Below are positions 7,356 through 35,090 of a stretch of DNA of 38,805 nucleotides, piece after piece (the stretch's first letter is position 1; each line of letters starts with the position of its first letter). Origin of the DNA: a virus. Under the pieces are notes generated by a model, which saw nothing but the letters and a program-made list of their open reading frames with translations, had not been told where the DNA came from and made no database searches. The translations under genes were made by a program, and so were the position numbers. Where the stretch lies: IMG/VR virus record IMGVR_UViG_3300038603_000019; one strand, written 5' to 3'.

Positions 7356-7453
7356 AAGAATTCTTAAAAAATCACCGTGCACAATGCGCAAAGACAGCTA
7401 GAGACTTAGGTTTCTGGTGGCCAAATCGCAACGAAGACCTAATGGAGAGCTAA
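7352..7453 (+). CDS. possible 33-aa protein
   Basis: ATGA overlap with the mazG stop. MKEFLKNHRAQCAKTARDLGFWWPNRNEDLMES. Confidence 0.3.
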   Translation: MKEFLKNHRAQCAKTARDLGFWWPNRNEDLMES

Positions 7454-7457
7454 ACCC

Positions 7458-7775: not shown

Positions 7776-8027
7776 TTCTGGAAAGTAAGTTGCAAGCAAT
7801 CCAAAAGCTACGGAGCAAATCAACGCCCATTTTGCAATTTGCTTTTCATTGTTTGCAATTTTCAAATCGTGGTTATCAACGCGCTTTTCGATGTTAGATA
7901 TTCGATTGTGAACGTTAGCTAGTTTCTCTGTCACATCAACCAGCCTATCTAATTGTTTTTCTTGGTGTAACTGACTTTGCTCAACTCTAGCTAGTCGCTC
8001 GTTAACTTCTGACATTATCGCACTCAT
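7752..8027 (-). CDS. coiled-coil protein with C-terminal TM (XhlA-like architecture)
   Basis: 91 aa with a heptad-like N-terminal region and a C-terminal WALICSVAFGLLATYF. No SD; the ATG abuts a terminator T-run. The 3' end overlaps the LuxR-type gene by 24 nt. Confidence 0.4.
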   Translation of the reverse strand: MSAIMSEVNERLARVEQSQLHQEKQLDRLVDVTEKLANVHNRISNIEKRVDNHDLKIANNEKQIAKWALICSVAFGLLATYFPELKTIIGL

Positions 8028-8030
8028 AAT

Positions 8031-8072
8031 AAAAACCCCATAATAACAGTATTGTACATTGTCATTATGGGG
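8031..8072 (-). terminator. hairpin terminator directly upstream of the 8027 start codon
   Basis: CCCCATAAT 8036-8044 pairs with ATTATGGGG 8064-8072. The T-run on the minus strand is 8031-8035. Confidence 0.55.
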
Positions 8073-8186
8073 CTTTGCAAAGTTAGTGCCTAGATGGGGT
8101 TTTGTGTAACACGGCTATCAAATAGTTGAAAGCCGCGTATGGGTTAATGGGGTTGTTGGGCTAGGTGTTAAAATAGACTGATAGAG

Positions 8187-8209
8187 AAAAGCCCCGTAAT
8201 GGGGCTTTT
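8187..8209. terminator. bidirectional hairpin terminator
   Basis: AAAAGCCCC-gtaat-GGGGCTTTT. Confidence 0.55.
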
Positions 8210-8265
8210 ATTGCTTATATTCGGCTTCTTATATTCAATCTTCGTTCATTACTGTTTACTTTTAA

Positions 8266-8290
8266 CCCCTTACATCACAAGTGTAAGGGG
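8266..8290. other. 9-bp stem hairpin
   Basis: CCCCTTACA-tcacaag-TGTAAGGGG, without a clear T-run. Confidence 0.4.
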
Positions 8291-8342
8291 CAGTTTATTG
8301 TAAATCTAGTAGATAAGAAGATGTCTTCCTGTATTGAGAATA

Positions 8343-8630
8343 TTAGTTGATCGCGCTAAAAAGGAACATAGCTAATTCTGTGTACCTGATACCGTAGCGG
8401 TTCCCTGCTTGGATTCCATTATCGAGATCCTCTTCCCATTCATCATAACAAAGTAAAGAATAGTCGTGAGCGCCTAAGCCATGCTTCTCAAATATAGCTT
8501 TAACTGTTTGTGCTCCTACACCAAAGTGAATTCGCGCATCACCTTCTTCCTTGTAATTCCACTTGAACTTCTTAATGCAACTTTTTATTTCTAAAGCTAC
8601 AGCTTTCTCTTTCTCTTCAATCGCGTCATC
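8343..8630 (-). pseudogene. remnant of a tail-fibre C-terminal intramolecular chaperone (peptidase S74-like) domain, no in-frame start
   Basis: Open 95-codon frame DDAIEEKEKAVALEIKSCIKKFKWNYKEEGDARIHFGVGAQTVKAIFEKHGLGAHDYSLLCYDEWEEDLDNGIQAGNRYGIRYTELAMFLFSAIN*. A TAA lies immediately upstream. SD AAAGGAG (8642-8636) and ATG (8629-8627) are in the +1 frame and give only 10 codons. Confidence 0.6.
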
Positions 8631-8716
8631 TTACGCTCCTTTCTTTTTATGTGTACTCCGTTTGTCGACTAACATACGGCTATTTGTAATTATATTTTAA
8701 GGTAGATTACAGATAT

Positions 8717-8745
8717 TAAAAAGGCTCCGGTTAAGGAGCCTTTTT
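8717..8745. terminator. bidirectional terminator after the tailspike gene
   Basis: AAAAAGGCTCC-ggttaa-GGAGCCTTTTT. Confidence 0.7.
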
Positions 8746-8816
8746 GTTGGGTGGTGGGATTAATCTCCCACAGAAGGCTTTATTGAGTACCACTTCCTTA
8801 GCTTGATAACTATCAG

Positions 8817-11135
8817 CTAACGTAAGAGTGAAAAACTCATGTTTCTTCCATCTACGGGAGTTGCCGAATCAGAACCGCACAATATTGAGAACGTATTGGG
8901 TGTAACTTGAACGCAGCTAATCATCAGCGTTCTTGCTACAGAAGTATTCTCTCCGTCACAGTTTAATATTGGGTTTGTGTAATTCAGTCTAGTTGTCACC
9001 GTATAATCCCCGATGTCATTTCTTACTACGTTAGTTATGTTGTATTGGTTGTTTATATTAATAACACCATCACCTGTAAACTGAACGTAAGCATCTGATT
9101 TTTTATTTGTAATATTTAGCAATTCTTCACCTATTAACGGTGATGGATTCGATGGTCCAACCTTTACAATATTGTTCTCCCAGTCAGTGTTGCCATATAC
9201 CTTGTAAAAGTTTGAATAATCCCCTATCACATTTACATTGTTATTTTTGACACTAATACCTTCTACCGATGAGCCGATATTTAACGCATAGAACCCTTGT
9301 GAGGTAGATTGTTTACCGTTTGATGATGCGCGGATTTTATTGTTACTAATATCGATATTTTTACCGCCTTCGATATTTATCAAATGGTTGTCGAACGCCT
9401 CATATTCGCCAACAACACCCGAGACACCGACATCTGCAAACAAGTTATCTCGCACCGTCAATCCGTCAACGTCGGTGACAATAAGAAGATTAGTACAAGC
9501 TTCCCAGTACCCCCCTATAATCGAAACAGCTTCTTTCAGTTCTGTGCCTGCCAATCCTATCGCATACGTGTCGCTATCTGACAAGCTTGAAAAACCATTA
9601 TACGTAGACTGCTTGTTGCCTTGGCAATTAAGTAGCTGAATAGTCTGACCCGCTCTTATAGCGAATCCTCTTGATCCTCGTATCGCTATACAATTTTCAA
9701 AAACTACATCACCACCATTACAGTCAATAAGAAAAGCTATATAATCTGTAGGCACAGGTTCACCAACCCATTGAACCCCTTTGACCCTAGCTGTGGATGT
9801 TCCTAGAGGCGCTTCGCTTTCTAATCCCAATAGATGAATGCCACCTCCATTATAGTCAGTCATATATAGATATTCATATCGCACCTGCGGGATGGAGCTT
9901 TGAATACAAGCGGAACCATTGCCACCGTATATAAGTAAATTTCGTATTGTTGCACCGTTAGTCAGATTTTCCACGCTGAATAATGGACCTGTTGAATCAG
10001 GGTCGTGGTATATTCTCGCTGCTTGATTTGCCGCGCTCCCGTTTTCCGGTCCTTGTAACGTAAATTGAGTGTTATTGACTAATGTTCTTGTTATCCTAAA
10101 AATTAAAGATGGTGGCACATACACAACCGAGTAAGGTTTGTAATCCATAGCAGCCTGAAAAGCATCAGTGTCATCTGTAACCCCATCACCAACAGCTCCA
10201 AAGTCCATAACGCTTACATAGTCAGCAAACCTATCATCCAAACGCCTAGGTGTTGTACTACCTGTTGCTGTGACTTCAGTACTAGATACTGTCTGCGCCG
10301 TCAACGGCTCCGTAGCTTCATGCCCCGTCGCCACACTACCCTGCTCAAACTTACAACTATAAATATCCGTTGCTGAGTTGGCGATAGTAATACGCCAGTT
10401 TCCGTCCCCGCTATCGCTGAACGATACGTGAGAAGTGTCTGGTGCTGTGACAGCGCCTGATACTTTTCCAGCTAAACTGGCGGTGTATTCTGTAAGGTCG
10501 CCGTCTTTAGGTACTAGAGTATATATTGAGCTAACACCGTCTTGAGTCCAGTTTAGAATGTCATTAACGCGAGTTACGCCAGAAGCACCGTTTACATCAT
10601 CAGCAAACCAACCGCTAAAGATTTGGAATCCCGCTGGATAGTCTTGAGGTGTCGCGCTCGGTGCTGGGAGTGAATCATCAGGTGATTCAACTTTAAATTG
10701 GCCGTTTGATAGTAGGTTTGGGTTGCGCACATTACTAGCGCTAATGTTAACCTTCCAATTAACATTATCCCCTACAGGGTCAACGCTAGTGTTTTGCAGT
10801 GCCGTAAAGTAGTTTCCAGTAGGCTTCCCGCCAATTTGAGTTTGCCAAACCTCTCCATGTGTCGCACTACCGCCAGTGTCAGGCCATAATCCTTGATATC
10901 CTGCCGTGCTTGCCGACGCTTCCGCAGCCGTAGCCGAAGCACTAGCCGCATTAGCGTTACCTTCCACATCGGTAACAGCTTGATTCATGCCGTCGATTGT
11001 GGCGTCTAGCTCAGCCGCAAGCTGAGCCTCATAGCTCAGTTGGCCAAACATATTTTGCGTAAACTCGGTTTGAGTTTGGCTACCGTCTGGATTTGCAACT
11101 TGTCCAGTGTAGGGTGTTAACTTTGGAATGGTCAT
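8817..11135 (-). CDS. tailspike / tail fibre with right-handed beta-helix (pectate-lyase-like) depolymerase domain
   Basis: 772 aa. Ala-rich coiled N-terminal anchor. YVSVMDFGAVGDGVTDDTDAFQAAMDY is the classic pectate_lyase_3 / tailspike N-cap. A long Gly/Asn-rich repeat region follows. Confidence 0.8.
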   Translation of the reverse strand: MTIPKLTPYTGQVANPDGSQTQTEFTQNMFGQLSYEAQLAAELDATIDGMNQAVTDVEGNANAASASATAAEASASTAGYQGLWPDTGGSATHGEVWQTQIGGKPTGNYFTALQNTSVDPVGDNVNWKVNISASNVRNPNLLSNGQFKVESPDDSLPAPSATPQDYPAGFQIFSGWFADDVNGASGVTRVNDILNWTQDGVSSIYTLVPKDGDLTEYTASLAGKVSGAVTAPDTSHVSFSDSGDGNWRITIANSATDIYSCKFEQGSVATGHEATEPLTAQTVSSTEVTATGSTTPRRLDDRFADYVSVMDFGAVGDGVTDDTDAFQAAMDYKPYSVVYVPPSLIFRITRTLVNNTQFTLQGPENGSAANQAARIYHDPDSTGPLFSVENLTNGATIRNLLIYGGNGSACIQSSIPQVRYEYLYMTDYNGGGIHLLGLESEAPLGTSTARVKGVQWVGEPVPTDYIAFLIDCNGGDVVFENCIAIRGSRGFAIRAGQTIQLLNCQGNKQSTYNGFSSLSDSDTYAIGLAGTELKEAVSIIGGYWEACTNLLIVTDVDGLTVRDNLFADVGVSGVVGEYEAFDNHLINIEGGKNIDISNNKIRASSNGKQSTSQGFYALNIGSSVEGISVKNNNVNVIGDYSNFYKVYGNTDWENNIVKVGPSNPSPLIGEELLNITNKKSDAYVQFTGDGVININNQYNITNVVRNDIGDYTVTTRLNYTNPILNCDGENTSVARTLMISCVQVTPNTFSILCGSDSATPVDGRNMSFSLLR

Positions 11136-11187
11136 CTAAATAACTCCTGTGTGTTTTGCATGATTTTAACACAGTTTGTGAGGCGCA

Positions 11188-12810
11188 TCACACAGATGCG
11201 CGCACAGTGATTTGATAGTTAATGTCGTTAGGCATGTTAAACGGTATCGGGCTGCGCTCGAAGAATCCGTAAGTAATCATTCTCTGGTCACTGCCGATAT
11301 CGCCAACCCATAGCGTGTTTTTACCTGTCAGCCCGTCTAGAAGCTTCTGTATTGATGGGTTAGTTAGTTTTGGCACTAGTACATCATAGGTATTTAATTC
11401 AACCACAATAGGCGCAGCGCCAGTCGGATAACCAAACTCGTTGTATTGCTGCTCACGGTATCGGAATCGGTCTGATTTTGTACCATTGGCAACAAGCGTA
11501 CCGATATTAACCGCAAAACCAAACGCAAGCTCACCAATCTGCACATCTGAGCCTGAGAATGTAACCCTGATTGTTGTGTTTGGTAGTGGCGGCAAATCTT
11601 CAACTATCAGCTTTTTAAGTGCCACAATCTGATAAAACACATAGGTGTAGTGGTCATAGATTGCTGAAAAGTCTGATGCTGTAAATGTTTTATCGTAAAT
11701 GTTTGCGCCACCTGTGTCGTCAACCTCAACTCGCACCGATGAAACACCTGAAAACCCCAGCACCGCTAACGTGTTAACGTAGGTGACTGGATTAAGCGTG
11801 ACTGTAAAATCCGTGTCGTTAATCGTCTTGGTGTTTTGAAGGTTATCAAACATCGCCCATTTGTTAGTGGGACCAACCACAATCCAAGTTGCTGCTGCGT
11901 CTTCTGTTGCGCCCTCTTCGGGGTCTTGACTTGTTGCTGTTAGGCACTGATAAACTTGGTGTGTGCTTGTTTTGATCACCCTATCGCCTGGTTGGTAAAG
12001 TCCTTCTAATTGGTAGTTTGACTTGTATATAATAATCCTTTTATCTATGGGGTTTAGCGTTATATACCCACTCGATGTTTTTTCAAACCCAACATCTTTT
12101 GTTGGATCTAGACTCCCAAGTGTCCCATCATCGTTAAAGTTATTTAGGTCCACCCCTGTCGTGTAAACCTTTATCTGGTCGGTATCGAATCCTTTTTTTG
12201 CTATGTTTTTGATTAGTCCATTCTGAAATGTTCCACCTAATAGCTTTGTTTCAATACTGGTTTGCAACACCTTTGATTCAACGAATGCCTCATTTGCTAT
12301 TTCGTACTTAGCTATTTTGTATGTTGTATCTGTGAAGTCTTTTAGAGTTAAGTAAATGTAAGCGCCGTCACTGCAAATTGTTTGCGCATACGCATTGGTG
12401 AAATTCAAATCAGTATTTATCACCTTGCCGGCATAATTCCAGTCTGTGTCGTACATTGATATCTGGTCGCCATTAGCAAACCAAAAGTTAGTACCATCAA
12501 AACAAACATCAATCTTATCCCCAGACACATAAGGTTGACCTGAGCTAAACGCCTTTGACGTGACGAACGAAAAGCTAGAATCGTAAATGTACGCAGTTGC
12601 TATCAGGGTCGATGTATTCCACCCAACAACCGTGTATCTATTGCCGTCATACGTCAACGCAACACCGTCAGATATTTCACTAACCAACTTCCCTATAAAC
12701 GCGTCCGTTGTCCACTCAACCTCACCCTGCGCAGTATCAGGCTCTGGTATGTCAGAAGCGGCTAAAACCGCCTCCGTCACTTCGATTGGCTCAACTACTT
12801 TTAAAGTCAT
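11188..12810 (-). CDS. tail tip / distal tail structural protein (function unresolved)
   Basis: 540 aa. The start overlaps the tape-measure stop. Position is between the tape measure and the tailspike. Confidence 0.55.
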   Translation of the reverse strand: MTLKVVEPIEVTEAVLAASDIPEPDTAQGEVEWTTDAFIGKLVSEISDGVALTYDGNRYTVVGWNTSTLIATAYIYDSSFSFVTSKAFSSGQPYVSGDKIDVCFDGTNFWFANGDQISMYDTDWNYAGKVINTDLNFTNAYAQTICSDGAYIYLTLKDFTDTTYKIAKYEIANEAFVESKVLQTSIETKLLGGTFQNGLIKNIAKKGFDTDQIKVYTTGVDLNNFNDDGTLGSLDPTKDVGFEKTSSGYITLNPIDKRIIIYKSNYQLEGLYQPGDRVIKTSTHQVYQCLTATSQDPEEGATEDAAATWIVVGPTNKWAMFDNLQNTKTINDTDFTVTLNPVTYVNTLAVLGFSGVSSVRVEVDDTGGANIYDKTFTASDFSAIYDHYTYVFYQIVALKKLIVEDLPPLPNTTIRVTFSGSDVQIGELAFGFAVNIGTLVANGTKSDRFRYREQQYNEFGYPTGAAPIVVELNTYDVLVPKLTNPSIQKLLDGLTGKNTLWVGDIGSDQRMITYGFFERSPIPFNMPNDINYQITVRASV

Positions 12811-15986: not shown

Positions 15987-16011
15987 GTGACATTCCCATT
16001 TTGTGACTGTG

Positions 16012-16044
16012 CTCACAGTATACCACTTGGTGAGGGGTTATTAT
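16012..16044 (+). promoter_or_regulatory. GTCACR-N21-(-10) promoter-like element, copy C
   Basis: CTCACA 16012-16017, 21 nt, TATTAT 16039-16044. ATG 16077 lies 32 nt downstream. Confidence 0.45.
16017..16028 (-). promoter_or_regulatory. extended -10 promoter for the tape measure gene (AAGTGGTATACT)
   Basis: The minus strand reads AAGTGGTATACT. It shares AAGTGGTATA with the late promoter at 32496-32507 and overlaps box C on the other strand. Confidence 0.4.
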
Positions 16045-16076: not shown

Positions 16077-16538
16077 ATGACAGCGCACAAACATGCAGCG
16101 ATGATTAAGTCTAAAGCTGATAATATGGATTTAGTGGTATTTAGTAAAAATGAATCAGGATGGAGAGTTTCAACTTTTGAAGATATCGTTTGCTGGCCTT
16201 CTCATGAGCACTTCCTTTGCCTACCTCAACACAAGGAGGCTTGCTTGCACTGGCTGAATGGTGGTGAAGTTGAGTGCAAATCAAACATTGTAGGCGAAGA
16301 GTGGAAAGAGTGTTACCCGCTTGGAAGTTGGCATTCAGGACTTGGCTTAATGCGAGAGGACGCTAAATACCGCATCAAGCCACGCAAAGAAAAGTGCTGG
16401 ATTGGGTATTGCGCAAATACAAATCAAACATTTCCACACCCACAGAAAACAATTGAGATTGCGGAGGATTATGCAGCAAGAAGCTACGGTTACAAGATGT
16501 CGGATTGGCAATTTATAGAAATAGAAGTTGAAGTCTAA
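16077..16538 (+). CDS. hypothetical Cys/His/Trp-rich protein (153 aa), opposite-strand insert in the tail module
   Basis: ORF with its own promoter-like element and terminator. No motif recognised. Confidence 0.6.
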   Translation: MTAHKHAAMIKSKADNMDLVVFSKNESGWRVSTFEDIVCWPSHEHFLCLPQHKEACLHWLNGGEVECKSNIVGEEWKECYPLGSWHSGLGLMREDAKYRIKPRKEKCWIGYCANTNQTFPHPQKTIEIAEDYAARSYGYKMSDWQFIEIEVEV

Positions 16539-17527: not shown

Positions 17528-18001
17528 TTAAGGCGCTGCGACTTCAACCATTTTCTTATCAACTGCAACGGTGTAAGTACAGCGGTTTAGTGGCACTTTC
17601 ACAGGCTCATAACCTGAAACCTTACCAGCGTAGTAAGTAGTCGAGCCGTCAGAGTGAGCAAGCTTGATTGATACCGGCGTAGTTTTGTTTGCGCCGTTAT
17701 GGTGGTCGATAAGTACAGCTTGACCATCATCATCAATAACGTGCGCGGTTACTAGGGTTGCGTCGCCCGCATCCGTGAACGTTAGCACCTTGATGATCTG
17801 ACCTGTTTTCATATCGTTGAATGTTTCAACGGTCGTTGATGAGGTGGGAATCGTAAAGTCTTCCATTAGACCTAACTCTTCCTCAGTACCATCAAACAAT
17901 GCAGCAAAACCGGCAGCGTCAAAAGTGGCAGGGTAGCCAGCTTTTACATATGCTATAGTGCCAATCGGTGATACTACATCTACTTCAGTAGCGATTGCCA
18001 T
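17528..18001 (-). CDS. major tail (tube) protein
   Basis: 157 aa and beta-rich. Position is immediately upstream of the chaperones and is followed by an attenuator. Confidence 0.6.
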   Translation of the reverse strand: MAIATEVDVVSPIGTIAYVKAGYPATFDAAGFAALFDGTEEELGLMEDFTIPTSSTTVETFNDMKTGQIIKVLTFTDAGDATLVTAHVIDDDGQAVLIDHHNGANKTTPVSIKLAHSDGSTTYYAGKVSGYEPVKVPLNRCTYTVAVDKKMVEVAAP

Positions 18002-18059
18002 GTCATTTCTCCTATAGGTTTAAGTATGACGTTGCTATTTTACTATATTTGTGAGGTTT

Positions 18060-18092
18060 GTCACATCAATGATTTCTGTGGGGTGGTATAGT
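18060..18092 (+). promoter_or_regulatory. GTCACR-N21-(-10) promoter-like element, copy A
   Basis: GTCACA 18060-18065, 21 nt, TATAGT 18087-18092, preceded by TGg (extended -10). ATG lies 32 nt downstream. Confidence 0.5.
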
Positions 18093-18124
18093 GATTTCGT
18101 TCAAAACAAATAGGAGAATGAGTA

Positions 18125-18382
18125 ATGAGCAACACAAAACGATTCTGCAAAATCCACGAAAGCAAGGATTACGGCCAGATTCTAGTAAGGCTTGATACAA
18201 ATGACGATGGAGAGCCCTGCATGACAATGACAATGAATATTAATGACATGTACGTATCCAACTCGATATCTGGATTTAACGATGATGTTACCGATGAGCA
18301 GTTGCTTGAATGTCTGGATGAAATTGGAGAAAAGGAGCTAGAAAGCTTCGCAAGCCAAATAGATAAACTGCTTAACAACTAA
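18125..18382 (+). CDS. hypothetical acidic protein (85 aa), opposite-strand insert
   Basis: SD AGGAG in a leader identical to the one at 21158-21181. Terminator follows. Confidence 0.6.
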   Translation: MSNTKRFCKIHESKDYGQILVRLDTNDDGEPCMTMTMNINDMYVSNSISGFNDDVTDEQLLECLDEIGEKELESFASQIDKLLNN

Positions 18383-18834: not shown

Positions 18835-18929
18835 GATTACCGCAAGGCACAATGCGCGAAAGTAACCGAGTTAGCCGAAAGGTCGCGAGCCTAGCCTCTC
18901 TATTTTATCCCACCAAGAGAGGTTCAGCC

Positions 18930-19766
18930 ATGAATGCGCCAGAAGACATCAAAAACGGAACTATTCACGACACCAATCAGTATGGAAAAATAATTGTAGT
19001 CGAATACAGGAAGTATAATGACATAACAGTTGAGTTCCTTGATACTGGATTCAGAAAGATTTGTACAACCAACAACATAAGAAACGGTCAGGTTGCTGAC
19101 GATTCAGCAATGCCAGCAGACATCAAGCCTGGAACAATTATGCGATCAAAAAACTTTGGTAAATTTGTAATAGTTGGCAAATCAAAAGCAAAGAAAACTT
19201 ACGCAACAGTACAGTTTGAGGAAACCGGCACTTTAGCTTCATTTAGGTATGACGACATAAGAAACGGTTCCGTAATGGATCGAAATAAAAAAACTGTATT
19301 TGGTGTTGGATTTATAGGTTATGGCGAATACAGCACCAGAGATATCAAAGCTTACAAGTGCTGGAACAGGATGCTTGAGAGGTGCTATAGCGAAAGGTGG
19401 CACAAATCAAAGCCAACGTATATTGGATGCAAAGTTTGTGAGGATTGGCACAACTACCAAGTTTTTGCAAAGTGGTATTTCGAAAACCACCCTCAAGACG
19501 GAGGTGATTATCATCTTGACAAGGATCTTGGTTGCTACGGAATGAACGGTAAGATTTACTCGCCAGAGACTTGTATTTTTGTTCCGCCAGAAATCAATGC
19601 AGAAGAGTCTCACGCAAAGTCATATAGATTCAAAAAAGAAGGAAAGACTTACGATATATACAACATGAGCAAGTTCTGCGAAAGAAATGGACTATCAAAG
19701 TCAAATATGGCAGCGGTAAACACAGGAAGAATTCACTCCTACAAAGGTTGGACAAGAGCGGGCTAA
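18930..19766 (+). CDS. homing-endonuclease-like / DNA-binding protein (tandem N-terminal repeats plus Cys/Trp-rich C-domain)
   Basis: Two repeats of about 55 aa (IKNGTIHDTNQYGKIIVVEY...IRNGQVAD and IKPGTIMRSKNFGKFVIVGK...IRNGSVMD). These are followed by GVGFIGYGEY...YKCWNRMLERCY...CKVCEDWHNYQVFAKW. The ATG at 18930 with SD AGAGAGG is preferred to 18852. Confidence 0.4.
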   Translation: MNAPEDIKNGTIHDTNQYGKIIVVEYRKYNDITVEFLDTGFRKICTTNNIRNGQVADDSAMPADIKPGTIMRSKNFGKFVIVGKSKAKKTYATVQFEETGTLASFRYDDIRNGSVMDRNKKTVFGVGFIGYGEYSTRDIKAYKCWNRMLERCYSERWHKSKPTYIGCKVCEDWHNYQVFAKWYFENHPQDGGDYHLDKDLGCYGMNGKIYSPETCIFVPPEINAEESHAKSYRFKKEGKTYDIYNMSKFCERNGLSKSNMAAVNTGRIHSYKGWTRAG

Positions 19767-21095: not shown

Positions 21096-21119
21096 TTTAT
21101 TTCTCCGATTGTGATAATG

Positions 21120-21152
21120 GTCACAGTATAACCGATTTGGAGGGGTTATAGT
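21120..21152 (+). promoter_or_regulatory. GTCACR-N21-(-10) promoter-like element, copy B
   Basis: GTCACA 21120-21125, 21 nt, TATAGT 21147-21152. ATG lies 32 nt downstream. Confidence 0.5.
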
Positions 21153-21184
21153 AATTGCGTTCAAAACAAATAGGAGAATGAACC

Positions 21185-21412
21185 ATGAAATACCAGAAGC
21201 AAGATAAAGTGGCGATTGCAAAGGGTCTTTTCTGCATCGGCGGCAATGACAACATGCCAGAGGAGATTGAGCAAACCATGAATGATTTGGATGTAGTTGA
21301 GGGTTGTGAGCTAGAATACTTCTTCACAAGAGATGATGGGTTCCACTTTGTTTATCATGAAGGTTTCGAGCTTGGATTTTGGGTCAACCCTAACCTTGTT
21401 GAGGTAAAGTAA
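21185..21412 (+). CDS. hypothetical acidic protein (75 aa), opposite-strand insert
   Basis: The leader CGTTCAAAACAAATAGGAGAATGA is identical to 18098-18121. Terminator follows. Confidence 0.6.
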   Translation: MKYQKQDKVAIAKGLFCIGGNDNMPEEIEQTMNDLDVVEGCELEYFFTRDDGFHFVYHEGFELGFWVNPNLVEVK

Positions 21413-21415
21413 ACC

Positions 21416-21439
21416 AAGCCCGCACTAAGCGGGCTTTTC
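21416..21439. terminator. hairpin terminator
   Basis: AGCCCGC-actaa-GCGGGCTTTT. Confidence 0.65.
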
Positions 21440-22080: not shown

Positions 22081-23028
22081 TTAAGGCGTAGTTGTTAGTG
22101 TAATGATGAAGCCAGCGGTTGCCTTGTCGCTTGTTGCGTACTTCTCCCAGTTGGTAGTTGTAGCAAGTGAAGCAGCAGACGGGTTAACGTTTGTTTTGGT
22201 CTTCCATTTGTAACCAAGAACCTCAACGTTAGCTGTACCCTCAGCACGGAAACCGATAGCCAAGTTTTCTTGGTCGTCAATCATGTAAGAGCGCATGCCC
22301 GGAGCTTGTGACTCAGTAATCATTACCGCACCAGCTACAAGACCGAAAATCTTAGTCGCTGGACATTGGTCAGTTACAAGTACAGGCTTGCCAAGTGTGC
22401 CAGGTGTACCGCCGTAAACTACAACGCCAGCCTCTTCGTAAAGCTTGTTGTCGATAGCTTCGTCAACGATATCGAAGTAAGACGTTGAATCCATTACCCA
22501 GATTGCGATAGATGACGCTTTATCACCCATTGTGCGCAGACCTTTAGTAAGGACTTTCTTACCTTCAGTTGCAAGCTCACCAGACACATTCATGCCAGCG
22601 TTAGAGCCGATTGCGCCTTGTAGCGCGTTCAGTGCGTAACCAATCCAACCAGACATTGTAGCGTCTGCCATATCTTGACCGATAATTTCAGAGAACTCCT
22701 CAGGCGAACGAGCGCGGCGCTTGAACGCTTCTTCTGTCGTTTCGTATGGACCATATTTCCATGGCACCTTCACTGATACCATTTCATCAGCAGCAATCTT
22801 GGTGCCTGTCACCGCTGCGGTTGAGTTTACATCACGGTCGGCGATAGAGCCACCCACTTTGTAGAACGAGCGAAGTTTCAAATCACCTTCGATTAGCTCA
22901 GAGTTTAGACCAATCGCAGCGCGTGAGTTTTCGTTAAACACAGCTAGGTTATCCATATTGCGCTCTAGGTACGCAGTTTGGGCTGTGTCGTTGTAGATTA
23001 CTAAATCAGAGTTTACTGTAGTAGCCAT
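22081..23028 (-). CDS. major capsid protein
   Basis: 315 aa. Follows the scaffold gene after a 10-nt gap. Strongly biased codon use, and an attenuator follows. Confidence 0.75.
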   Translation of the reverse strand: MATTVNSDLVIYNDTAQTAYLERNMDNLAVFNENSRAAIGLNSELIEGDLKLRSFYKVGGSIADRDVNSTAAVTGTKIAADEMVSVKVPWKYGPYETTEEAFKRRARSPEEFSEIIGQDMADATMSGWIGYALNALQGAIGSNAGMNVSGELATEGKKVLTKGLRTMGDKASSIAIWVMDSTSYFDIVDEAIDNKLYEEAGVVVYGGTPGTLGKPVLVTDQCPATKIFGLVAGAVMITESQAPGMRSYMIDDQENLAIGFRAEGTANVEVLGYKWKTKTNVNPSAASLATTTNWEKYATSDKATAGFIITLTTTP

Positions 23029-25183: not shown

Positions 25184-25250
25184 ATCCACTCCTCCGTTTC
25201 GTTGTTGAATCAAACTATACCCTAGTTGATGTGGTGATGTTGTGAGATTG

Positions 25251-25283
25251 GTCACAGTAAATAGAATTAAGTTGTGCGATTAT
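25251..25283 (+). promoter_or_regulatory. GTCACR-N21-(-10) promoter-like element, copy D
   Basis: GTCACA 25251-25256, 21 nt, GATTAT 25278-25283 (alternative TATGGT 25281-25286). ATG lies 25 nt downstream. Confidence 0.4.
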
Positions 25284-25308: not shown

Positions 25309-25503
25309 ATGACAGATTGGTACGAGTACGAAAGCGGATGCAGTGTATTCATCCATAGCGGGAAATACATGTCTTATATTGGCAACTTCGTAAAACTTTC
25401 GCAATGCAGGAAGTTTGCATTTGTTGATGTTGACTTATCTCCAGAGCCAATAGTGAGGAGAATTAGATACAAGTTGTGCAACATTTCAAAATACGAACAC
25501 TAA
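25309..25503 (+). CDS. hypothetical protein (64 aa)
   Basis: SD AGAGAGG; first ORF of a three-gene plus-strand cassette. Confidence 0.5.
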   Translation: MTDWYEYESGCSVFIHSGKYMSYIGNFVKLSQCRKFAFVDVDLSPEPIVRRIRYKLCNISKYEH

Positions 25504-25515
25504 AGGATCGACAAA

Positions 25516-25701
25516 ATGAAGAATAAAAAGGTTAAGCAGATGATGGCTTGTGGTTACGACAATGCAGCCGATAGAGTTGGTTACTGGTGCGAGCATCAGA
25601 AAAACCTTATTGATTGCGCAAGGTTTATGCGAGGTAAGTTTTTGTGGTGGCCTAAGTGCAGCACAATCTCACTAACAGCAAGCGAATTGAAGGGGGAGTG
25701 A
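25516..25701 (+). CDS. hypothetical Cys/Trp-rich protein (61 aa)
   Basis: ORF track entry. The stop overlaps the next ATG. Confidence 0.45.
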   Translation: MKNKKVKQMMACGYDNAADRVGYWCEHQKNLIDCARFMRGKFLWWPKCSTISLTASELKGE

Positions 25702-25829: not shown

Positions 25830-25834
25830 AACCA

Positions 25835-25857
25835 AAACCCTCGCAATGAGGGTTTTT
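25835..25857. terminator. hairpin terminator
   Basis: AAACCCTC-gcaat-GAGGGTTTTT. Confidence 0.65.
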
Positions 25858-25858: not shown

Positions 25859-26929
25859 TTAATCTTTCTTCAGAATCCTAGCGGCCTTTTTGCTCTTGGT
25901 CACAAGCTGATCGAGAGTAATAGGGTTTCCCATGTGGTCATAAGCAAGTTTCACAAACTCTTCTGATGACATGTTGTCTAGTAACCTAGCCCTATCCTCA
26001 CCTAGCGATTCTATGGCAAGGTTCTTATTTTCCTTAGCTAAATCTAGCCAACTCTTGTTGGAATCAACTCTTTTCGCTCGACCGTCGACAACGCTAGGCC
26101 TTGTGCGTGGTTCTTCCAGCTCCTCAAATTCAGGCGCAAGCAGATAACGCATTGTGCTACGGCAGTTGTGATGGAAAGGATTTCTCGGGAAATTAAACCC
26201 GTCTTTCGCGTAATAGTATTTCTTGCCACCGCCATCGAGACTACCCAAACGCTGACAAATCGGACTGGTGCGTGAATCCAAGGTAACTACTACGGCCTCA
26301 CCCACAACCACATCCTGATTCGCCATGCCAACCGATGTTTTAGCGGTTGATGATATGTGGCTTGTTACGTCTTTCGTTAACGTAAAAGCTCCGCGTGACA
26401 TCTGATTGCTAACCGATGAATTTTGTCGCCCCATAATTTGCTGTGACATCTCGTAAGTAGTCAAACCGTCACGCCAGCCACCTGTAATAATCCGCTTGAT
26501 TCTATCGACTGAGTTAGCGTTGTAATTCTTAATGCGCTCATCGACCGTGTATGCTTGACCGTTTAACACCATTTCAGTGTTGAATGCAGTTTTAGTGATT
26601 GACTCTAGTGTTGGTCGTGCGATTTTCTGGCCTACCAAGTTAGACAATGCAGCCTGGTGAAACTTAGCCTCCTCCTTGGCAAGCGCCACAAGCTCGCTTT
26701 CTAGCTCTCCACTCCAGCCGCCTAGCTCAACACCAATTAGTTCGTTAACCAGCGCCAGAAGCTCATCACGGCGCTTCTTTGTGGTGATTGCATCGGTTGA
26801 TAGCAACTCTTCACGCAATGCTTTAATAATCGCGTCAATGTACGGTTGTGCATTACGACCAAGTGACCGACTAAACCGGATAAGTGCTATTTCATGCGAT
26901 AGCGTTGTTGCTAGTGCTGTTTCTGCCAT
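25859..26929 (-). CDS. head morphogenesis protein (SPP1 gp7 / Mu F-like)
   Basis: SPICQRLGSLDGG...FPRNPFHHNCRSTM matches the Mu-F motif (C..C...P.H.NCR). Lies next to the portal gene. The ATG at 26929 or the GTG at 26947 could be the start. Confidence 0.8.
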   Translation of the reverse strand: MAETALATTLSHEIALIRFSRSLGRNAQPYIDAIIKALREELLSTDAITTKKRRDELLALVNELIGVELGGWSGELESELVALAKEEAKFHQAALSNLVGQKIARPTLESITKTAFNTEMVLNGQAYTVDERIKNYNANSVDRIKRIITGGWRDGLTTYEMSQQIMGRQNSSVSNQMSRGAFTLTKDVTSHISSTAKTSVGMANQDVVVGEAVVVTLDSRTSPICQRLGSLDGGGKKYYYAKDGFNFPRNPFHHNCRSTMRYLLAPEFEELEEPRTRPSVVDGRAKRVDSNKSWLDLAKENKNLAIESLGEDRARLLDNMSSEEFVKLAYDHMGNPITLDQLVTKSKKAARILKKD

Positions 26930-26942
26930 TTTTGAGACCTTT

Positions 26943-26975
26943 GTCACAGAAGTATTCGAATGATGGCGTTATTAT
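26943..26975 (+). promoter_or_regulatory. GTCACR-N21-(-10) promoter-like element, copy E
   Basis: GTCACA 26943-26948, 21 nt, TATTAT 26970-26975. ATG lies 30 nt downstream. Confidence 0.45.
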
Positions 26976-27005: not shown

Positions 27006-27338
27006 ATGAAGATGAGTGACGAAAATGTAATTTACTGCTTGGAAAATTTAGCCGGATATGAGCCTGATGATATTGATTGCGACGATGTTGAAATTGCAGT
27101 GAATGACGACCAATTTGCAACAATGAGTATTGTCCGAACTGCTGAGTTAGGCGCTGAATTAGCAAGGCGCCTAACCGAAGAAAACGCGAAGTTGCGGGAG
27201 GCCTTAGAGCAATCAAGTGAAGTTTTGCGTCGTCAACTGAGTCAATATTATTACAAAGACGAAGTGTCAATGCTTAATCAGTATGAGAGCAACAAACAAC
27301 TACTAAACCAACTAAAGGGCCAAGACAATGACAAATAA
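27006..27338 (+). CDS. hypothetical acidic coiled-coil protein (110 aa)
   Basis: ORF track entry. SD GAGGG. Confidence 0.5.
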   Translation: MKMSDENVIYCLENLAGYEPDDIDCDDVEIAVNDDQFATMSIVRTAELGAELARRLTEENAKLREALEQSSEVLRRQLSQYYYKDEVSMLNQYESNKQLLNQLKGQDNDK

Positions 27339-28035
27339 AGTAAAACCATTCTTTATCCGCATCACCGACGACATGACGCCGCAAATGGTTCAAGATGCTT
27401 TTGATAAGTGTGTAGATGCTGGGGCGACCGCTGATGAGTGCATCGCGGACACAAACAGAAAACATAGTTATCAAGATTCTTACCATGAAAACTTTAATTA
27501 TTTTGGGGTAAGCGACTACAACGAAACATACCTCACAGACGACCACTGCAATTATGGAGAATGCGCCCAAGAAATCACCCTAGACCAGCTTGATGAGTGG
27601 TTGGGGTTGGATGGTGAGCATGGGTGGGATGGTGAAGGATTGCCGCCTGTTGGTGTTGAGTGTGAAATTCTAGATATTAATGGTAATGATGTTATCGGTA
27701 GCGGAACAATATACCACGTTGATGCCAATAAGTTTTTTGTTTTGTCGGAATCACTAAAAAACTACCCAGAAGAATCAACCATTAATATGTTCGACGGCAC
27801 TATTAACCTTTACGTTATGTGGGTTAATAATGGTGATAAGCGATTCCGCAAACCAGAAACACCAGAACAAAAAGCCGAGCGTGAGCGATTGGAGGCGGCT
27901 TATGATTTGTATTTAACCAGGCTTTCTGTTGGCGAAAATTACTTACCATACACCTATGATGAGTTTTTGAACGAGAAAATGACCAGGCTTGGATTCCTAG
28001 CAATCGTGGACAAAACAAACTACCGTAAACAATAA
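27328..28035 (+). CDS. hypothetical protein (235 aa)
   Basis: Overlaps the upstream stop. Terminator follows. Confidence 0.55.
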   Translation: MTNKVKPFFIRITDDMTPQMVQDAFDKCVDAGATADECIADTNRKHSYQDSYHENFNYFGVSDYNETYLTDDHCNYGECAQEITLDQLDEWLGLDGEHGWDGEGLPPVGVECEILDINGNDVIGSGTIYHVDANKFFVLSESLKNYPEESTINMFDGTINLYVMWVNNGDKRFRKPETPEQKAERERLEAAYDLYLTRLSVGENYLPYTYDEFLNEKMTRLGFLAIVDKTNYRKQ

Positions 28036-28037
28036 TA

Positions 28038-28066
28038 AAAGGGCCTTAATTGGCCCTTTCTTTTTT
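28038..28066. terminator. bidirectional terminator
   Basis: AAAGGGCC-ttaatt-GGCCCTTTCTTTTTT. Abuts the portal stop. Confidence 0.65.
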
Positions 28067-29554: not shown

Positions 29555-30103
29555 TTATCCGATAAACTTGAACTTACCAGAGTCATACATCTCTCTAAAA
29601 ATATCTGATGAGCAATGCATGTCATCCCTATTCCATATTTTACTGGCTTCTTTGATAAACTCCTGACGCTCGTCAATCTCTTTTTCGACTCTTCTGTATA
29701 GATTGCCCTCATTCCAATACCAAGCCGAATCTTGGTACTCTGCTGCTTGATATTCTCCTGAACAGTTATTTAGGAAGAAATATTCCCCATAATTATCATG
29801 CACTGATTGAACGCAATCCCCCACGCTAACAAAACTCACCTTCTCGTATTCGGTGCGGGTGCGTGGTTTTAGGTCGGATAGGGTTAGTCGCTTTAGGTCC
29901 AAATAAAAATCATCGTTACAACAAATAACACCTTGCAATTCCGTGTTTTCATCAACCATCAATAGGCTGTACTTGTTTATATCAAGCCCCGCGTGATTCC
30001 AGCTTACACCAAACTGCTCACACTTTTTCAAGTAAAGCTCTCTAAGCTCACCTTTATGGCAAAATACCGCAGTATCAATCAAATCCTCTTTACATTTAAT
30101 CAC
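29555..30103 (-). CDS. hypothetical protein (182 aa) inserted between TerL and portal
   Basis: GTG start with SD GAGGA. Flanked by terminators on both sides. Confidence 0.5.
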   Translation of the reverse strand: MIKCKEDLIDTAVFCHKGELRELYLKKCEQFGVSWNHAGLDINKYSLLMVDENTELQGVICCNDDFYLDLKRLTLSDLKPRTRTEYEKVSFVSVGDCVQSVHDNYGEYFFLNNCSGEYQAAEYQDSAWYWNEGNLYRRVEKEIDERQEFIKEASKIWNRDDMHCSSDIFREMYDSGKFKFIG

Positions 30104-30121: not shown

Positions 30122-30146
30122 AAAAACACCCTCAGTTTAGAGGGTG
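30122..30146 (-). terminator. terminator after terL
   Basis: CACCCTC-agttta-GAGGGTG with TTTTT on the minus strand. Confidence 0.6.
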
Positions 30147-30171
30147 CGGTTTGTTTTGTCTGTGATGGTTG

Positions 30172-31398
30172 TCACAATAACCAGATATTGGTGTCGGTCT
30201 TTGGTGGCGGGCTGTAAGTAATCATATCGTTAAAACAATAACGAATAGCATCAATATAGTGGTTATAAGCATCAACCAATTGGTTTTTAATCTCGCCCGT
30301 GTATCGGTCTGTTTTGTAGCTGTAGTATGTAAACTCTTTAATGGTTTCCGTACACTCTGGATTGATAAAAATACGTTTAGAGCGTAGCCACTCTACACCA
30401 TCTTCTACTGAGCCTTTCCACTTTGGAACACCTTCGATGCGCGGAATGCCAGTCCTTTTGAGCAAGCTAATAGACTCAGGTCGCGCAGAGTCAGCGTAAA
30501 CCTTGGCATCATTAATGCCATCAATGCGCTTCACCAGGTAATCTGCCGTATGGTCAATTTCTAGACCAACCTTGCCCGCCTCTTTCTCAATATAAACATC
30601 ATTCCCATTCAGCCAGCATTTAACGCCCGCGGTAGGGTCTTGAGAAAAGCCGAAATCTAGGCCGTAGTAAGGACCTTCCCAACCGTTAGTATTAACCCGC
30701 TCAACCTTCCAGTTTTTGAACACTTGCGCTTCAGTGTGCTCGTAATAAGCACCCAACCAAACATGAGCGTAAAGCTCCGGTGGCATCGTGTCTTCATCGT
30801 GGCGGCGTAGGTCCTCAAGCCCTTTAGGAAAAAACGGATTGTCGTAATAGTTCATCTCAACCATTACGGCATCGTCAGGCTTAAATTTACGGAATCGCTT
30901 GTCTACTGGCGACTCTTTTTTGCGCGGGTTCCAAATCACCCAGCACTCTGCCTTGTCGGTACGAAAGATTGTGGGCAACAGGTCAACCCATGCGTTTTCT
31001 GGTACATCTTCCGCTTCTTCCACGATGGTTAGGTCAATTTGCGCGGTAGACTTAACTGAACCCATGCCGTGACGCAAACCTTTAAACAGGAACTCAGTGC
31101 CGTTATTGTTGTTGCGGATATAGTCGATACCAACATCATAAACACTAGATAACCATTCGTCGGACTTGATAGCGTTCTTTAGTTCAGCGTGAAACGACTC
31201 TTTGATAGACACTTGAAGCTCACGAGTGCACAAGATACGCATTTTATCAATCGCGCCCCAGACAGCCGCCATCTTTGCAAAGTTGAATGACTTACCAGAC
31301 CCCCTCCCGCCGAAAGCCCCGCGAAACCTTACGGCCCCGCGAGGTTGCTCAAATACTTCTAGTATCTTTGGTGGTAACTCAATCTTCTTTGTTGTCAT
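30172..31398 (-). CDS. terL: terminase large subunit
   Basis: Walker A FGGRGSGKS, a Walker B-like LTIVEEAED, and a C-terminal nuclease region (YGLDFGFS, VYADSARPE). ATG at 31398 (TTG at 31407 is also possible). Confidence 0.9.
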   Translation of the reverse strand: MTTKKIELPPKILEVFEQPRGAVRFRGAFGGRGSGKSFNFAKMAAVWGAIDKMRILCTRELQVSIKESFHAELKNAIKSDEWLSSVYDVGIDYIRNNNNGTEFLFKGLRHGMGSVKSTAQIDLTIVEEAEDVPENAWVDLLPTIFRTDKAECWVIWNPRKKESPVDKRFRKFKPDDAVMVEMNYYDNPFFPKGLEDLRRHDEDTMPPELYAHVWLGAYYEHTEAQVFKNWKVERVNTNGWEGPYYGLDFGFSQDPTAGVKCWLNGNDVYIEKEAGKVGLEIDHTADYLVKRIDGINDAKVYADSARPESISLLKRTGIPRIEGVPKWKGSVEDGVEWLRSKRIFINPECTETIKEFTYYSYKTDRYTGEIKNQLVDAYNHYIDAIRYCFNDMITYSPPPKTDTNIWLL

Positions 31399-32564: not shown

Positions 32565-32777
32565 TTAAGACAACACAACCCCATCTTTATCAGCCTTTGC
32601 GCCTGTGATTTGTTTCTTACCATGAAAAACGCGAAGGCCAACACGCTCACATGCTTGAATAGCTTCTCGAAGCTGGTCGATAACTACAACTTGTTTACGT
32701 GTTAGTGGTTTTGAGATTGCGCCTAGTGCCTGCTCTTCTTCTGGTGTTTGTGTTGCGATTTTATCTGTGTTGCTCAT
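32565..32777 (-). CDS. hypothetical protein (70 aa)
   Basis: Last ORF of the early-left operon. Confidence 0.5.
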   Translation of the reverse strand: MSNTDKIATQTPEEEQALGAISKPLTRKQVVVIDQLREAIQACERVGLRVFHGKKQITGAKADKDGVVLS

Positions 32778-32781: not shown

Positions 32782-32964
32782 TTATTCCTCCCAAATATCT
32801 ACAACTTCAGTGTCAATGTCATCAGACCATTGCGCACCAGTGTCTTTGTCGTCATTAAGCATTTCAATAGCTTTTGCTTTTGCTTCCTCTTCTGATTTTA
32901 CTCCATCGACATTAATCATAAAAGTCTCTGTTCTTTCGATTGTTACTGTAAAATATTGATTCAT
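32782..32964 (-). CDS. hypothetical very acidic protein (60 aa)
   Basis: The ORF overlaps the upstream stop. The C-terminus is rich in D/E. Confidence 0.5.
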   Translation of the reverse strand: MNQYFTVTIERTETFMINVDGVKSEEEAKAKAIEMLNDDKDTGAQWSDDIDTEVVDIWEE

Positions 32965-33200
32965 TTTATTTCCTCCACAAACTTCACATCGTAAATATCC
33001 ACGCGTACATACATCGGTGCATGTGTCGCATCTAGGTTTTTAATCTGCCCTGGTGACAGGCTGGCTCCGTCAAAAACTACATAACGTGACGGGGTGCCAC
33101 TCGCGTTCTCAATCAACCGCGATGGAATATTCCAATCATCAAGAGTCGCTTTAAAGTCAATTGCGCACATCGGCGACGGCAACAAGCACTTACTAATCAA
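32961..33200 (-). CDS. hypothetical protein (79 aa)
   Basis: Coupled starts and stops. Confidence 0.5.
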   Translation of the reverse strand: MISKCLLPSPMCAIDFKATLDDWNIPSRLIENASGTPSRYVVFDGASLSPGQIKNLDATHAPMYVRVDIYDVKFVEEIK

Positions 33201-33540: not shown

Positions 33541-33693
33541 TCACATTTGATTCTCCCAATTGTTGATGATGATTTCCTCTACGCTTTCTAGATAGCTTTC
33601 GTAGCAGGATTTCACCCATTTATCCCATTCGATACCGTTCCAATCTTCGATTAACTGGTCTAGATATTCATCTTCGTAGTCTTGTAGTGTCAT
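33541..33693 (-). CDS. hypothetical acidic 50-aa protein
   Basis: SD GGAGG. ATGA overlap with the upstream stop. MTLQDYEDEYLDQLIEDWNGIEWDKW.... Confidence 0.4.
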   Translation of the reverse strand: MTLQDYEDEYLDQLIEDWNGIEWDKWVKSCYESYLESVEEIIINNWENQM

Positions 33694-34370: not shown

Positions 34371-34408
34371 GCCAGCCTCCATTGGTTAAACTATACCCCA
34401 CCACCAAT

Positions 34409-34882
34409 CTAAACACTGTGACGCGCTTCACGCTTTCGAGCTTCGGATGATAGTTTTATGTGTTTTCGAATTGTCTCGACACATACGTCGTGGTCTGCCG
34501 CGCAATCCTCCTGCGTTGGATACTGCTTAACTATCAAATCCATATTGTGCATTTCGTAGTGACTAAGCTTACTATTGGTTCGCGGCTTCCTACAGCCACC
34601 AAATGGTATTTTGTGCTTCTTCGACACCCAGTCAATCTGCATCCAGTTGTACCCAAGAAGCTCAGCTACCATCTTCATAGTGTGAGTCTTTGACATCTTT
34701 CTAATTTCTTCGATGTGCTCTCGCTTAACCCCGCGATACTGAAAGTCACCAATCTTTTTTCTTATTGTTGACTTGCCCACCCCATAAAATTCACCAGCCG
34801 CTTTGATAGTCCCAAGCTCTAGTATTTTTTGTTGCACTTCTTCTTGTGTGTAGTGCCTTAGCTTTTCCGGTCTACCTGCCAT
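34409..34882 (-). CDS. multi-HTH DNA-binding regulator (157 aa)
   Basis: Three HTH-like segments: TIKAAGEFYGVGKSTIRKKI, TMKMVAELLGYNWMQIDWVSKKH and TQEDCAADHDVCVETIRKHI. Confidence 0.55.
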   Translation of the reverse strand: MAGRPEKLRHYTQEEVQQKILELGTIKAAGEFYGVGKSTIRKKIGDFQYRGVKREHIEEIRKMSKTHTMKMVAELLGYNWMQIDWVSKKHKIPFGGCRKPRTNSKLSHYEMHNMDLIVKQYPTQEDCAADHDVCVETIRKHIKLSSEARKREARHSV

Positions 34883-35057: not shown

Positions 35058-35090
35058 ATGATAGCCACAAACCCAATTTAATGCTGTGAC
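35058..35090 (-). promoter_or_regulatory. GTCACR-N21-(-10) promoter-like element, copy F (early-left operon)
   Basis: Minus strand reads GTCACA (35090-35085), 21 nt, TATCAT (35063-35058). ATG 35029 lies 28 nt downstream. Confidence 0.45.

Follow-up and report, generated by a model that had tools for sequence, protein, structure and literature searches.

The window analysed here (IMGVR_UViG_3300038603_000019; 38.8 kb, the whole stretch of DNA; 43% GC) is the genome of a phiHSIC-like Vibrio siphophage. Most of its transcription units appear to carry one type of promoter, in which an inverted repeat, TGTGA-N6-TCACA, precedes a -10 hexamer by exactly 21 nt; the replication operon is predicted to be headed by a sigma70 promoter instead. 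The arrangement is that of class II promoters that depend on CRP, the receptor protein for cyclic AMP (cAMP), and host cAMP-CRP is likely to be their activator. An original prediction, made from the sequence of the window, had listed nine copies of a GTCAC(A/G) box located 21 nt upstream of a -10-like hexamer, among them the copy at 21120, and had proposed a phage-specific temporal class of promoters that needs an activator or a sigma-appropriation factor. The nine copies all exist where it placed them, with exactly 21 nt between box and hexamer in 9/9. The loose pattern [GAC]TCAC[AG]-N21-NA[AT][ATC][AGT]T gave 15 matches in the window against 2.98 +/- 1.58 in dinucleotide-preserving shuffles, and none of the 100 shuffles reached 15. 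The start codon follows the hexamer by 25-32 nt in all nine copies, and a G-rich run abuts the hexamer in the six copies for which it had been reported and is missing from the other three. The three sigma70-like promoters named for comparison (35615, 18805, and 23771-23743) exist and lack the box.

The box is not the free-standing element that it had been taken for. When 30 nt of upstream flank was included, GTCACA in nearly every intergenic copy proved to form the right-hand part of an inverted repeat of 16 bp, TGTGA-N6-TCACA, which corresponds to the core of the 22-bp CRP site. The window contains seven perfect dyads, where 0.02 would be expected, and 15 if up to one mismatch is allowed (1.85 expected). 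Non-coding DNA, which makes up 9.9% of the window, holds all seven perfect dyads (p about 9e-8; two overlap a stop codon by 5 nt), and the four intragenic one-mismatch dyads match the chance prediction. Half-sites alone showed no enrichment. Over nine motif-bearing genomes (the window, phiHSIC, P23, ValSw3-3, pYD38-B, VnaS-L3, 1.178.O, 1.198.A, and 1.105.O), the dyad centre was N6 72 times and any other length from N0 to N14 0-2 times, and the inverse arrangement occurred once. By inspection, the LexA box (CTGT-N8-ACAG) and the Fnr box (TTGAT-N4-ATCAA) misfit in both spacing and half-sites.

The distance from dyad to hexamer is equally strict. We scored -10-like hexamers at 14-29 nt on both sides of every dyad with at most one mismatch in seven genomes; a good hexamer was located at exactly 21 nt in 54 site-orientations and at any other spacing in 0-8. 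With the hexamer placed at -12 to -7, TCACA occupies -38 to -34 and TGTGA -49 to -45, and the dyad centre falls at -41.5, overlapping the -35 region; these positions are measured relative to the -10 hexamer and thus refer to predicted starts. The 21-nt "spacer" arises because TCACA ends at -34 and the -10 element starts at -12, and there is no -35 hexamer, since the invariant C and A of TCACA take up positions -35 and -34. The claim that the 21-nt distance sets these promoters apart from sigma70 -35/-10 pairs and calls for an activator was upheld. In the aligned promoters, the -10 element is TAnnnT, which is of the sigma70 type, G is favoured at -33 and -14, and C and A are favoured at -1 and +1, 7 nt after the hexamer. 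The C/A preference suggests, independently, initiation about 7 nt past the hexamer, at the starts that we predict. The conservation of the half-sites and the -10 element in the logo is by construction; this does not apply to the spacing histogram, the enrichment, or the flanking preferences. A TG extended -10 element was found among the strong promoters of the window in 18050 (+) alone. A generic -35/-10 scan does not call the dyad promoter sites, and generic sigma70 -35/-10 matches are not enriched and, if anything, depleted (32 versus 37.7 and 19 versus 38.6). One promoter alone, TTGACA-16-TGtTATGAT at 35615, comes near the sigma70 consensus, and it is the one at the head of the replication operon.

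The same box and 21-nt spacing are conserved in eight relatives, as the original prediction had asked of related phages. The records nearest to the window are the Vibrio phages P23, phiHSIC, ValSw3-3, pYD38-B, and vB_VnaS-L3, with about 85-87% identity across approximately half of the structural region. Perfect dyads number 7 in phiHSIC, 11 in P23, 9 in ValSw3-3, 7 in pYD38-B, 7 in VnaS-L3, and 8 in 1.178.O, a more distant relative, with about 0.05 expected; 1.198.A has 7 and 1.105.O has 9. The last is a 49-kb phage of a different structural lineage from the phiHSIC-like group (its capsid differs, being of the DUF2184 type, and it has a baseplate), and its promoters show the same coupling of dyad, N21, and TATAGT, TATTAT, or TATACT despite the different structural module. 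The nine genomes contain 46 distinct perfect 16-mers with variable centres, indicating that half-sites and spacing are retained while the centre drifts. Likewise, promoters that are orthologous, for example the ones that precede the MazG unit, retain the 21 nt while their spacer sequence is replaced. A blastn search using the 21110 promoter as the query hit 124 Vibrio phage records, and in the distant ones the conserved block begins with the dyad's first base and ends near the predicted start. No perfect dyads occur in VP882 and K139, two unrelated Vibrio phages.

A pattern scan of viral contigs gave, among the matches listed, mostly single chance hits, and three matches were informative. L076 is a phiHSIC-like fragment that carries the pattern. 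ICP1 (L025; HQ641347, about 4.9-10.4 kb), an unrelated Vibrio phage, has seven perfect dyads within 13 kb of its early region. They have the same TGTGA-N6-TCACA sequence but differ in position, being located upstream of ordinary -35/-10 promoters (e.g., TCACA-N10-TTGCAA-N17-TAnnnT), and none lies at -41.5. The third, L039 (IMGVR_UViG_3300005438_000006, positions 5127-12541), is an unrelated and unplaced phage contig of 63% GC with six perfect GTGTGAC-N4-GTCACAC dyads against 0.16 expected. All six have a hexamer exactly 21 nt on (TAGnnT in 5/6 and TACATT in 1/6), and a ribosome-binding site (RBS) and ATG come next in at least two.

The known hosts of all the relatives are Vibrio, and we compared the phage sites with the sites of a Vibrio CRP. 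A symmetrised position weight matrix (PWM) was built from 25 high-confidence V. cholerae CRP sites mapped by chromatin immunoprecipitation sequencing (table in PMC6050953). The phage sites score 11.3-16.4 and the host sites 10.6-19.3 with this V. cholerae matrix. Matches scoring at least 12 number 13 in the window (1.15 expected), 9-17 in the relatives, and 0-2 in the control phages. CRP activates from -41.5 or -61.5 (PMC6050953), and the phage dyads are at the former position. No CRP homolog was found in seven phage genomes by tblastn, so that a protein of this specificity is known on the Vibrio side and was not found on the phage side.

The search for a phage-encoded binder common to the nine motif-bearing genomes (tblastn, Pfam, PHROGs) also found no DNA-binding protein. 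Five helix-turn-helix (HTH) proteins of the window had been put forward, and 0/5 co-occur with the motif across the nine genomes at E <= 1, which makes a phage-specific class improbable. The product of 7458-7775 is a 105-aa GerE/LuxR-type HTH protein that also matches a PHROG annotated as "sigma factor" (region-4-like); LuxR-type proteins also bind dyads near -42. Its gene neighbours MazG in the unit that the 6773 dyad promoter heads, and only half of the relatives have it, phiHSIC, pYD38-B, VnaS-L3, and 1.105.O lacking it. The HTH protein of 34409-34882 is present in P23, 1.178.O, and 1.198.A only, that of 4331-4498 is missing from phiHSIC, P23, and 1.105.O, that of 4495-5028 is missing from 1.178.O, 1.198.A, and 1.105.O, and that of 35670-35861 has no match in the other motif-bearing genomes. 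The small proteins that the phiHSIC group conserves (3957-4139, 4132-4341, 5499-5684, 32565-32777, 32961-33200, and others) have no DNA-binding domain and no counterpart in 1.105.O. A search from 1.105.O left a single protein that all nine genomes share, a Trp-rich 50-aa protein (33541-33693, minus strand) with 14 Asp/Glu, two Lys, and no Arg, which has three unannotated near-identical homologs in a large protein database and whose homolog in 1.105.O is itself located behind a dyad promoter. Its net charge is about -12, an acidity that rules out sequence-specific binding of DNA.

The CRP-consensus sequence, the lack of a shared phage binder, and the presence of the dyad at the early-left promoters 35100 and 34432, which must fire with host factors, together favour host cAMP-CRP. 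Several points weigh against this assignment. CRP binding, the start sites, and activation rather than repression are all things that we infer from sequence. GC makes up 49% of the centre in the phage sites and 33% in the mapped host sites, a difference with p = 0.001; the base after TGTGA is T in 35% of the phage half-sites, compared with 68% in the host sites. In the part of the PMC6050953 table that was examined, one host site is a perfect TGTGA-N6-TCACA, compared with seven in the window, and perfect half-sites in such numbers look more like the operator set of a phage than like a host regulon. Reviews describe V. cholerae cya/crp mutants as altered in their susceptibility to other phages via adsorption (one says increased), and they give no support for a general CRP dependence of vibriophages. 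They also contradict the view that such mutants are resistant to JSF/ICP1 phages. The similar dyads in ICP1, which precede ordinary -35/-10 promoters, and in the 63% GC contig make another binding protein conceivable, and homology searches could miss a small, fast-evolving DNA-binding protein. Such a protein would be an unrecognised dimeric activator encoded by the phage, binding at -41.5 and switching on a phage-controlled class after an early protein has been made. Many perfect palindromes in strict register are typical of phage operator and activator sets, the window encodes several HTH proteins, including the GerE/sigma-region-4-like one, and the centre composition and the arrays in other phages point the same way. 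Nevertheless, we regard a phage activator as unlikely. Each HTH protein is missing from at least three of the nine genomes, the only universal protein is strongly acidic, the early-left promoters bear the dyad too, and the relatives do not conserve the first gene behind the one strong sigma70 promoter, 35615; moreover, the match to the CRP half-site, the 6-bp spacing, and the -41.5 position would all be coincidence.

A further point against simple activation by CRP comes from the opposite strand. The original prediction had noticed that the box reads TATACTGTGA on the other strand at 21120 and 16012 and might double as the -10 element of the diverging structural gene. The string is present at both sites, and comparison lends support to its putative double role. 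TATACT adjoins the dyad on the opposite strand (TATACT/GTGA-N6-TCACA) 16 times in the nine genomes, and 16/16 of these junctions face a structural gene, with an RBS and ATG just past the dyad. Two are in the window (21126-21131 and 16018-16023, minus strand) and 14 in the relatives, including three non-orthologous contexts in 1.105.O. TATACT may therefore be the -10 element of a divergent promoter whose start falls inside the CRP-type site, and a dyad lying on the start of such a putative promoter at the two window junctions is unexplained by pure activation. The junctions would fit a model in which the dyads are operators for negative control, the promoters firing via the -10 element and the G at -14 until CRP or a phage repressor silences them. 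There is precedent in phage T1, whose pir, dam, and recE promoters are repressed by cAMP-CRP (PMC6737242), and the 18050 promoter has a full TG extended -10 element. However, the other strong promoters have neither this element nor a -35 hexamer and should be weak unaided, and the dyad is fixed to a single base at -41.5, which is an activating register, whereas repressor sites tolerate variable positions across the core promoter. Negative control is, in our opinion, quite improbable.

The original model itself, in which GTCACA is a displaced -35-like box recognised through sigma appropriation or spacer untwisting, is hardly tenable. The 21-nt distance is indeed incompatible with a normal -35/-10 pair, and the small acidic protein found in all the relatives could in principle target RNA polymerase, but the box is half of a symmetric dyad that extends to -49. 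The T4 MotA box is asymmetric and located at about -30, 11-13 bp from the -10 element. The MotA/AsiA middle promoters share with the present ones a sigma70-type -10 element and an activator-bound element that replaces the -35 contact; the geometry here, with a symmetric dyad at -49 to -34 whose inner half lies 21 nt from the -10 element, is different. MerR operators are dyads enclosed in the 19-20-bp spacer that separates recognisable -35 and -10 hexamers, whereas here the dyad is located upstream of an unconserved 21-nt spacer. No matches to the MotA, AsiA, or MerR families were found by Pfam among the 40 open reading frames (ORFs) scanned. The late promoters of P2, 186, and P4 have a TGT-N12-ACA dyad centred near -55, bound by the zinc-finger activators Ogr, B, and Delta. 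They also lack a -35 hexamer and have an upstream TGT...ACA activator dyad; here, the dyad is TGT-N10-ACA at -41.5, an N8 core, as N12 would require, was counted 0 times, and no Ogr/Delta-like zinc-finger activator was found among the scanned ORFs. Nor is there evidence for a temporal class, as early-left, lysis, portal, capsid, tail, and cassette units are all headed alike.

For the promoters of the window, a promoter PWM was trained on the relatives alone (33 non-redundant promoters; cut-off 8). Eleven matches score 25-44 bits, far above the null maximum of 14.6, and these strong promoters are listed in Table 1 together with the weaker sites.

Table 1. Dyad promoters and related sites in the window (PWM, score in bits with the promoter matrix trained on relatives).
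Feature	Positions	Strand	Dyad	-10 element	Downstream genes	PWM
Weak or doubtful site	1120-1162	+	TGATAAGCGCGTCACG (3 mismatches; left half TGATA)	AATAAT at 21 nt	Exonuclease gene 1191-2033
Strong promoter	3882-3924	+	CGTGACCGCCATCACA (1 mismatch)	TATATT 3919-3924	Rightward unit from 3957: small conserved genes, candidate endolysin 5681-6064, holin	25.5
Strong promoter, right after terminator 6745-6761	6773-6815	+	TGTGAAGCGCGTCACG (1 mismatch)	TATTAT 6810-6815	6847-6987, MazG 6984-7355, GerE/sigma-region-4-like protein 7458-7775	26.9
Orphan perfect dyad	11177-11192		TGTGAGGCGCATCACA		Between two tail genes	8.2 (+ only)
Strong promoter	16002-16044	+	TGTGACTGTGCTCACA (perfect)	TATTAT 16039-16044	Cassette gene 16077-16538	40.6
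Probable divergent promoter	18023-18065	-	Shared, 18050-18065	CATACT 18023-18028	Faces tail-region gene 17528-18001	18.0
Strong promoter	18050-18092	+	TGTGAGGTTTGTCACA (perfect)	TATAGT 18087-18092, TG at -15/-14	Cassette gene 18125-18382	30.2
Strong promoter, predicted start about 21159	21110-21152	+	TGTGATAATGGTCACA (perfect), 21110-21125; 21-nt spacer	TATAGT 21147-21152	75-aa cassette gene 21185-21412	44.4
Strong divergent promoter	25214-25256	-	Shared, 25241-25256	TATAGT 25214-25219	Unit from ATG 25183 through scaffold-like gene and major capsid gene 22081-23028	31.9
Strong promoter	25241-25283	+	TGTGAGATTGGTCACA (perfect)	GATTAT 25278-25283	Cassette genes 25309-25701	25.1
Strong promoter	26933-26975	+	TGAGACCTTTGTCACA (1 mismatch)	TATTAT 26970-26975	Cassette genes 27006-28035	34.7
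Strong, probable promoter	30134-30176	-	Perfect, 30161-30176	TAAACT 30134-30139 (-10-like)	29555-30103 and portal gene	25.8
Strong promoter	34390-34432	-	CGTGAAGCGCGTCACA (1 mismatch)	TATAGT 34390-34395	Leftward operon from ATG 34370	28.0
Strong promoter	35058-35100	-	TGTGATAGCGGTCACA (perfect)	TATCAT 35058-35063	Early-left genes 34883-35029 and 34409-34882	41.5

Three of the strong promoters (34432-34390, 25256-25214, and 30176-30134) and a weaker one (18065-18023), all on the minus strand, were not among the nine copies of the original prediction. Of its two weaker matches, that at 30166 proved to be a perfect dyad and that at 6076 is not a member of the family. Its copy at 1130 has the 21-nt distance but is weak, with three dyad mismatches and a score under the PWM cut-off, and lies inside the replication operon; comparison is uninformative here because the region is 95% identical in P23 and pYD38-B. 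The statement that the copies head only accessory cassettes or the early-left operon does not hold, since capsid, portal, and tail units are headed too. The units headed by dyad promoters are the early-left, lysis, MazG/GerE, portal, and capsid units, part of the tail, and the five plus-strand cassettes that break up the minus-strand structural genes. The peptidase-like endolysin candidate of the lysis unit is named, via homology, after the annotation of the relatives. Units without a dyad promoter include 18852-19766, which has the sigma70-like promoter at 18805, and the head-morphogenesis gene 25859-26929, which has no recognisable promoter of its own and would need read-through or an unseen promoter. 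Bidirectional terminators close 3/5 cassettes (21416-21436, 25834-25856, and 28037-28060). As a single helicase gene is divided between the two ends of the window (38056-38805 and 1-1119), the window is a circular permutation of the whole genome.

Dyad 25241-25256 faces two divergent -10 elements, each of which places it at -41.5, and dyad 18050 probably does likewise. The minus-strand promoter at the former has orthologs in all close relatives, and the CATACT arrangement at the latter is kept in VnaS-L3 (39424). The large terminase gene ends in dyad 30161-30176, where the TGA in TGTGA serves as its stop codon. The hexamer of this promoter (TAAACT; TATTAT in P23 and 1.178.O) lies in the loop of a terminator-like hairpin (30147-30126), and a transcript from the promoter would lack the 5' arm of the hairpin, so that terminator and promoter overlap. 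In phiHSIC and pYD38-B, the same dyad is located directly before the portal gene. The orphan dyad 11177-11192 has no usable -10 element toward a gene and is kept in P23, ValSw3-3, and VnaS-L3; it overlaps a hairpin, GCGCATC-ACACA-GATGCGC, and the string ATCACAnACAGATGCGCG is shared with the 3882 promoter.

Two further features lie beside the promoters. The leaders of two cassettes, 18093-18124 and 21153-21184, are nearly identical (GTTCAAAACAAATAGGAGAATGA). The 18125 and 21185 cassette proteins do not qualify as paralogs (BLASTP E = 2.8), and near-identical leaders before unrelated proteins suggest a portable promoter-plus-leader module. In addition, TTGACGAAT has four perfect copies in the window (35258-, 35331-, 35396+, and 35581+), and all of them are found in a non-coding gap of about 490 bp between the leftward dyad promoter and the sigma70 promoter 35615 (35170-35600), with two near copies in the same gap (35176- and 35552+). 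Copies on the left are read on the minus strand and copies on the right on the plus strand, on either side of a (TAAA)n tract at about 35446-35470. The array resembles an iteron or operator array and is possibly an origin or control region.

Activation by host cAMP-CRP, the explanation that we prefer, would operate as follows. A CRP dimer would bind the dyad spanning -49 to -34, its contact with RNA polymerase would replace the missing -35 contact, and host sigma70 holoenzyme would start about 7 nt after the hexamer; dyad 25241 and probably dyad 18050 would serve divergent promoters, each from -41.5. In E. coli, galP1 and melR are class II promoters at which CRP replaces the -35 contact. The phage promoters share with these, and with the synthetic CC(-41.5) promoter, the dyad at -41.5, the absence of a -35 hexamer, the 21-bp distance, and the sigma70-type -10 element. 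They differ in being the main promoter class of a phage genome, in mostly perfect half-sites, which are rare in the host, in a GC-neutral rather than A/T-rich centre, in the G at -33 and -14, and in that at least one dyad faces two promoters. The architecture is thus that of ordinary class II CRP promoters, and both the co-option of LexA, Spo0A, and CtrA by phages and CRP repression in T1 are already known. In the literature searched, which did not cover the original phiHSIC papers, we came across no account in which CRP-type activator promoters form the main promoter class in a phage group; the ValSw3-3 genome paper gives only 97 generic predicted promoters.

Phages are known to co-opt host master regulators through CtrA boxes (PhiCbK-like and other alphaproteobacterial phages), LexA boxes, and, in phi29, Spo0A (PMC9437464). 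As in those cases, the sites here are enriched, high-scoring, intergenic promoter sites that are kept through turnover in more than one lineage of diverged phages. The differences are the regulator, CRP with its carbon signal, and the presence of sites at nearly every unit in one activating register, genome-wide, rather than in clusters within terminal repeats or gap regions. In phage T1, host CRP acts directly on phage promoters and links development to sugar uptake (PMC6737242). It represses a few promoters there, whereas the architecture here predicts activation of most units; a search of passages of PMC6737242 turned up no CRP site architecture for T1.

Because the early-left, lysis, portal, capsid, part-tail, and cassette promoters carry the dyad, their expression would depend on host cAMP, that is, on carbon status. 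A broader proposal, which we consider speculative and rather doubtful, is that cAMP-CRP gates the whole productive programme of phiHSIC-like vibriophages, so that carbon status decides whether virions are made or phiHSIC enters its carrier ("pseudolysogenic") state, which has long lacked an explanation. It includes a toggle at 21110 and 16002, where one CRP dimer would activate the cassette while sitting on the divergent TATACT start, and a titration, in which the dozen-odd near-consensus sites of each genome, multiplied by the genome copies, would soak up CRP and depress host catabolic genes. Such a titration would account for the lower substrate use that has been reported in phiHSIC pseudolysogens (table in PMC6359870).

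The dyad, N21, and TAnnnT constitute a compact model for annotating transcription units in genomes for which generic predictors give about 100 "promoters" each, and the promoter module is common to at least 124 sequenced records. If host cAMP-CRP is indeed the activator, CRP, as a strict class II activator, would join the short list of co-opted host master regulators (LexA, Spo0A, and CtrA), and a large marine group of Vibrio phages would read host carbon status at nearly every transcription unit. This would offer a molecular handle, concrete and easy to test, on the nutrient dependence of infection outcomes as well as on pseudolysogeny in the classic phiHSIC/Listonella pelagia system, and it would affect phage therapy in aquaculture, since the sugar supply could alter phage efficacy.

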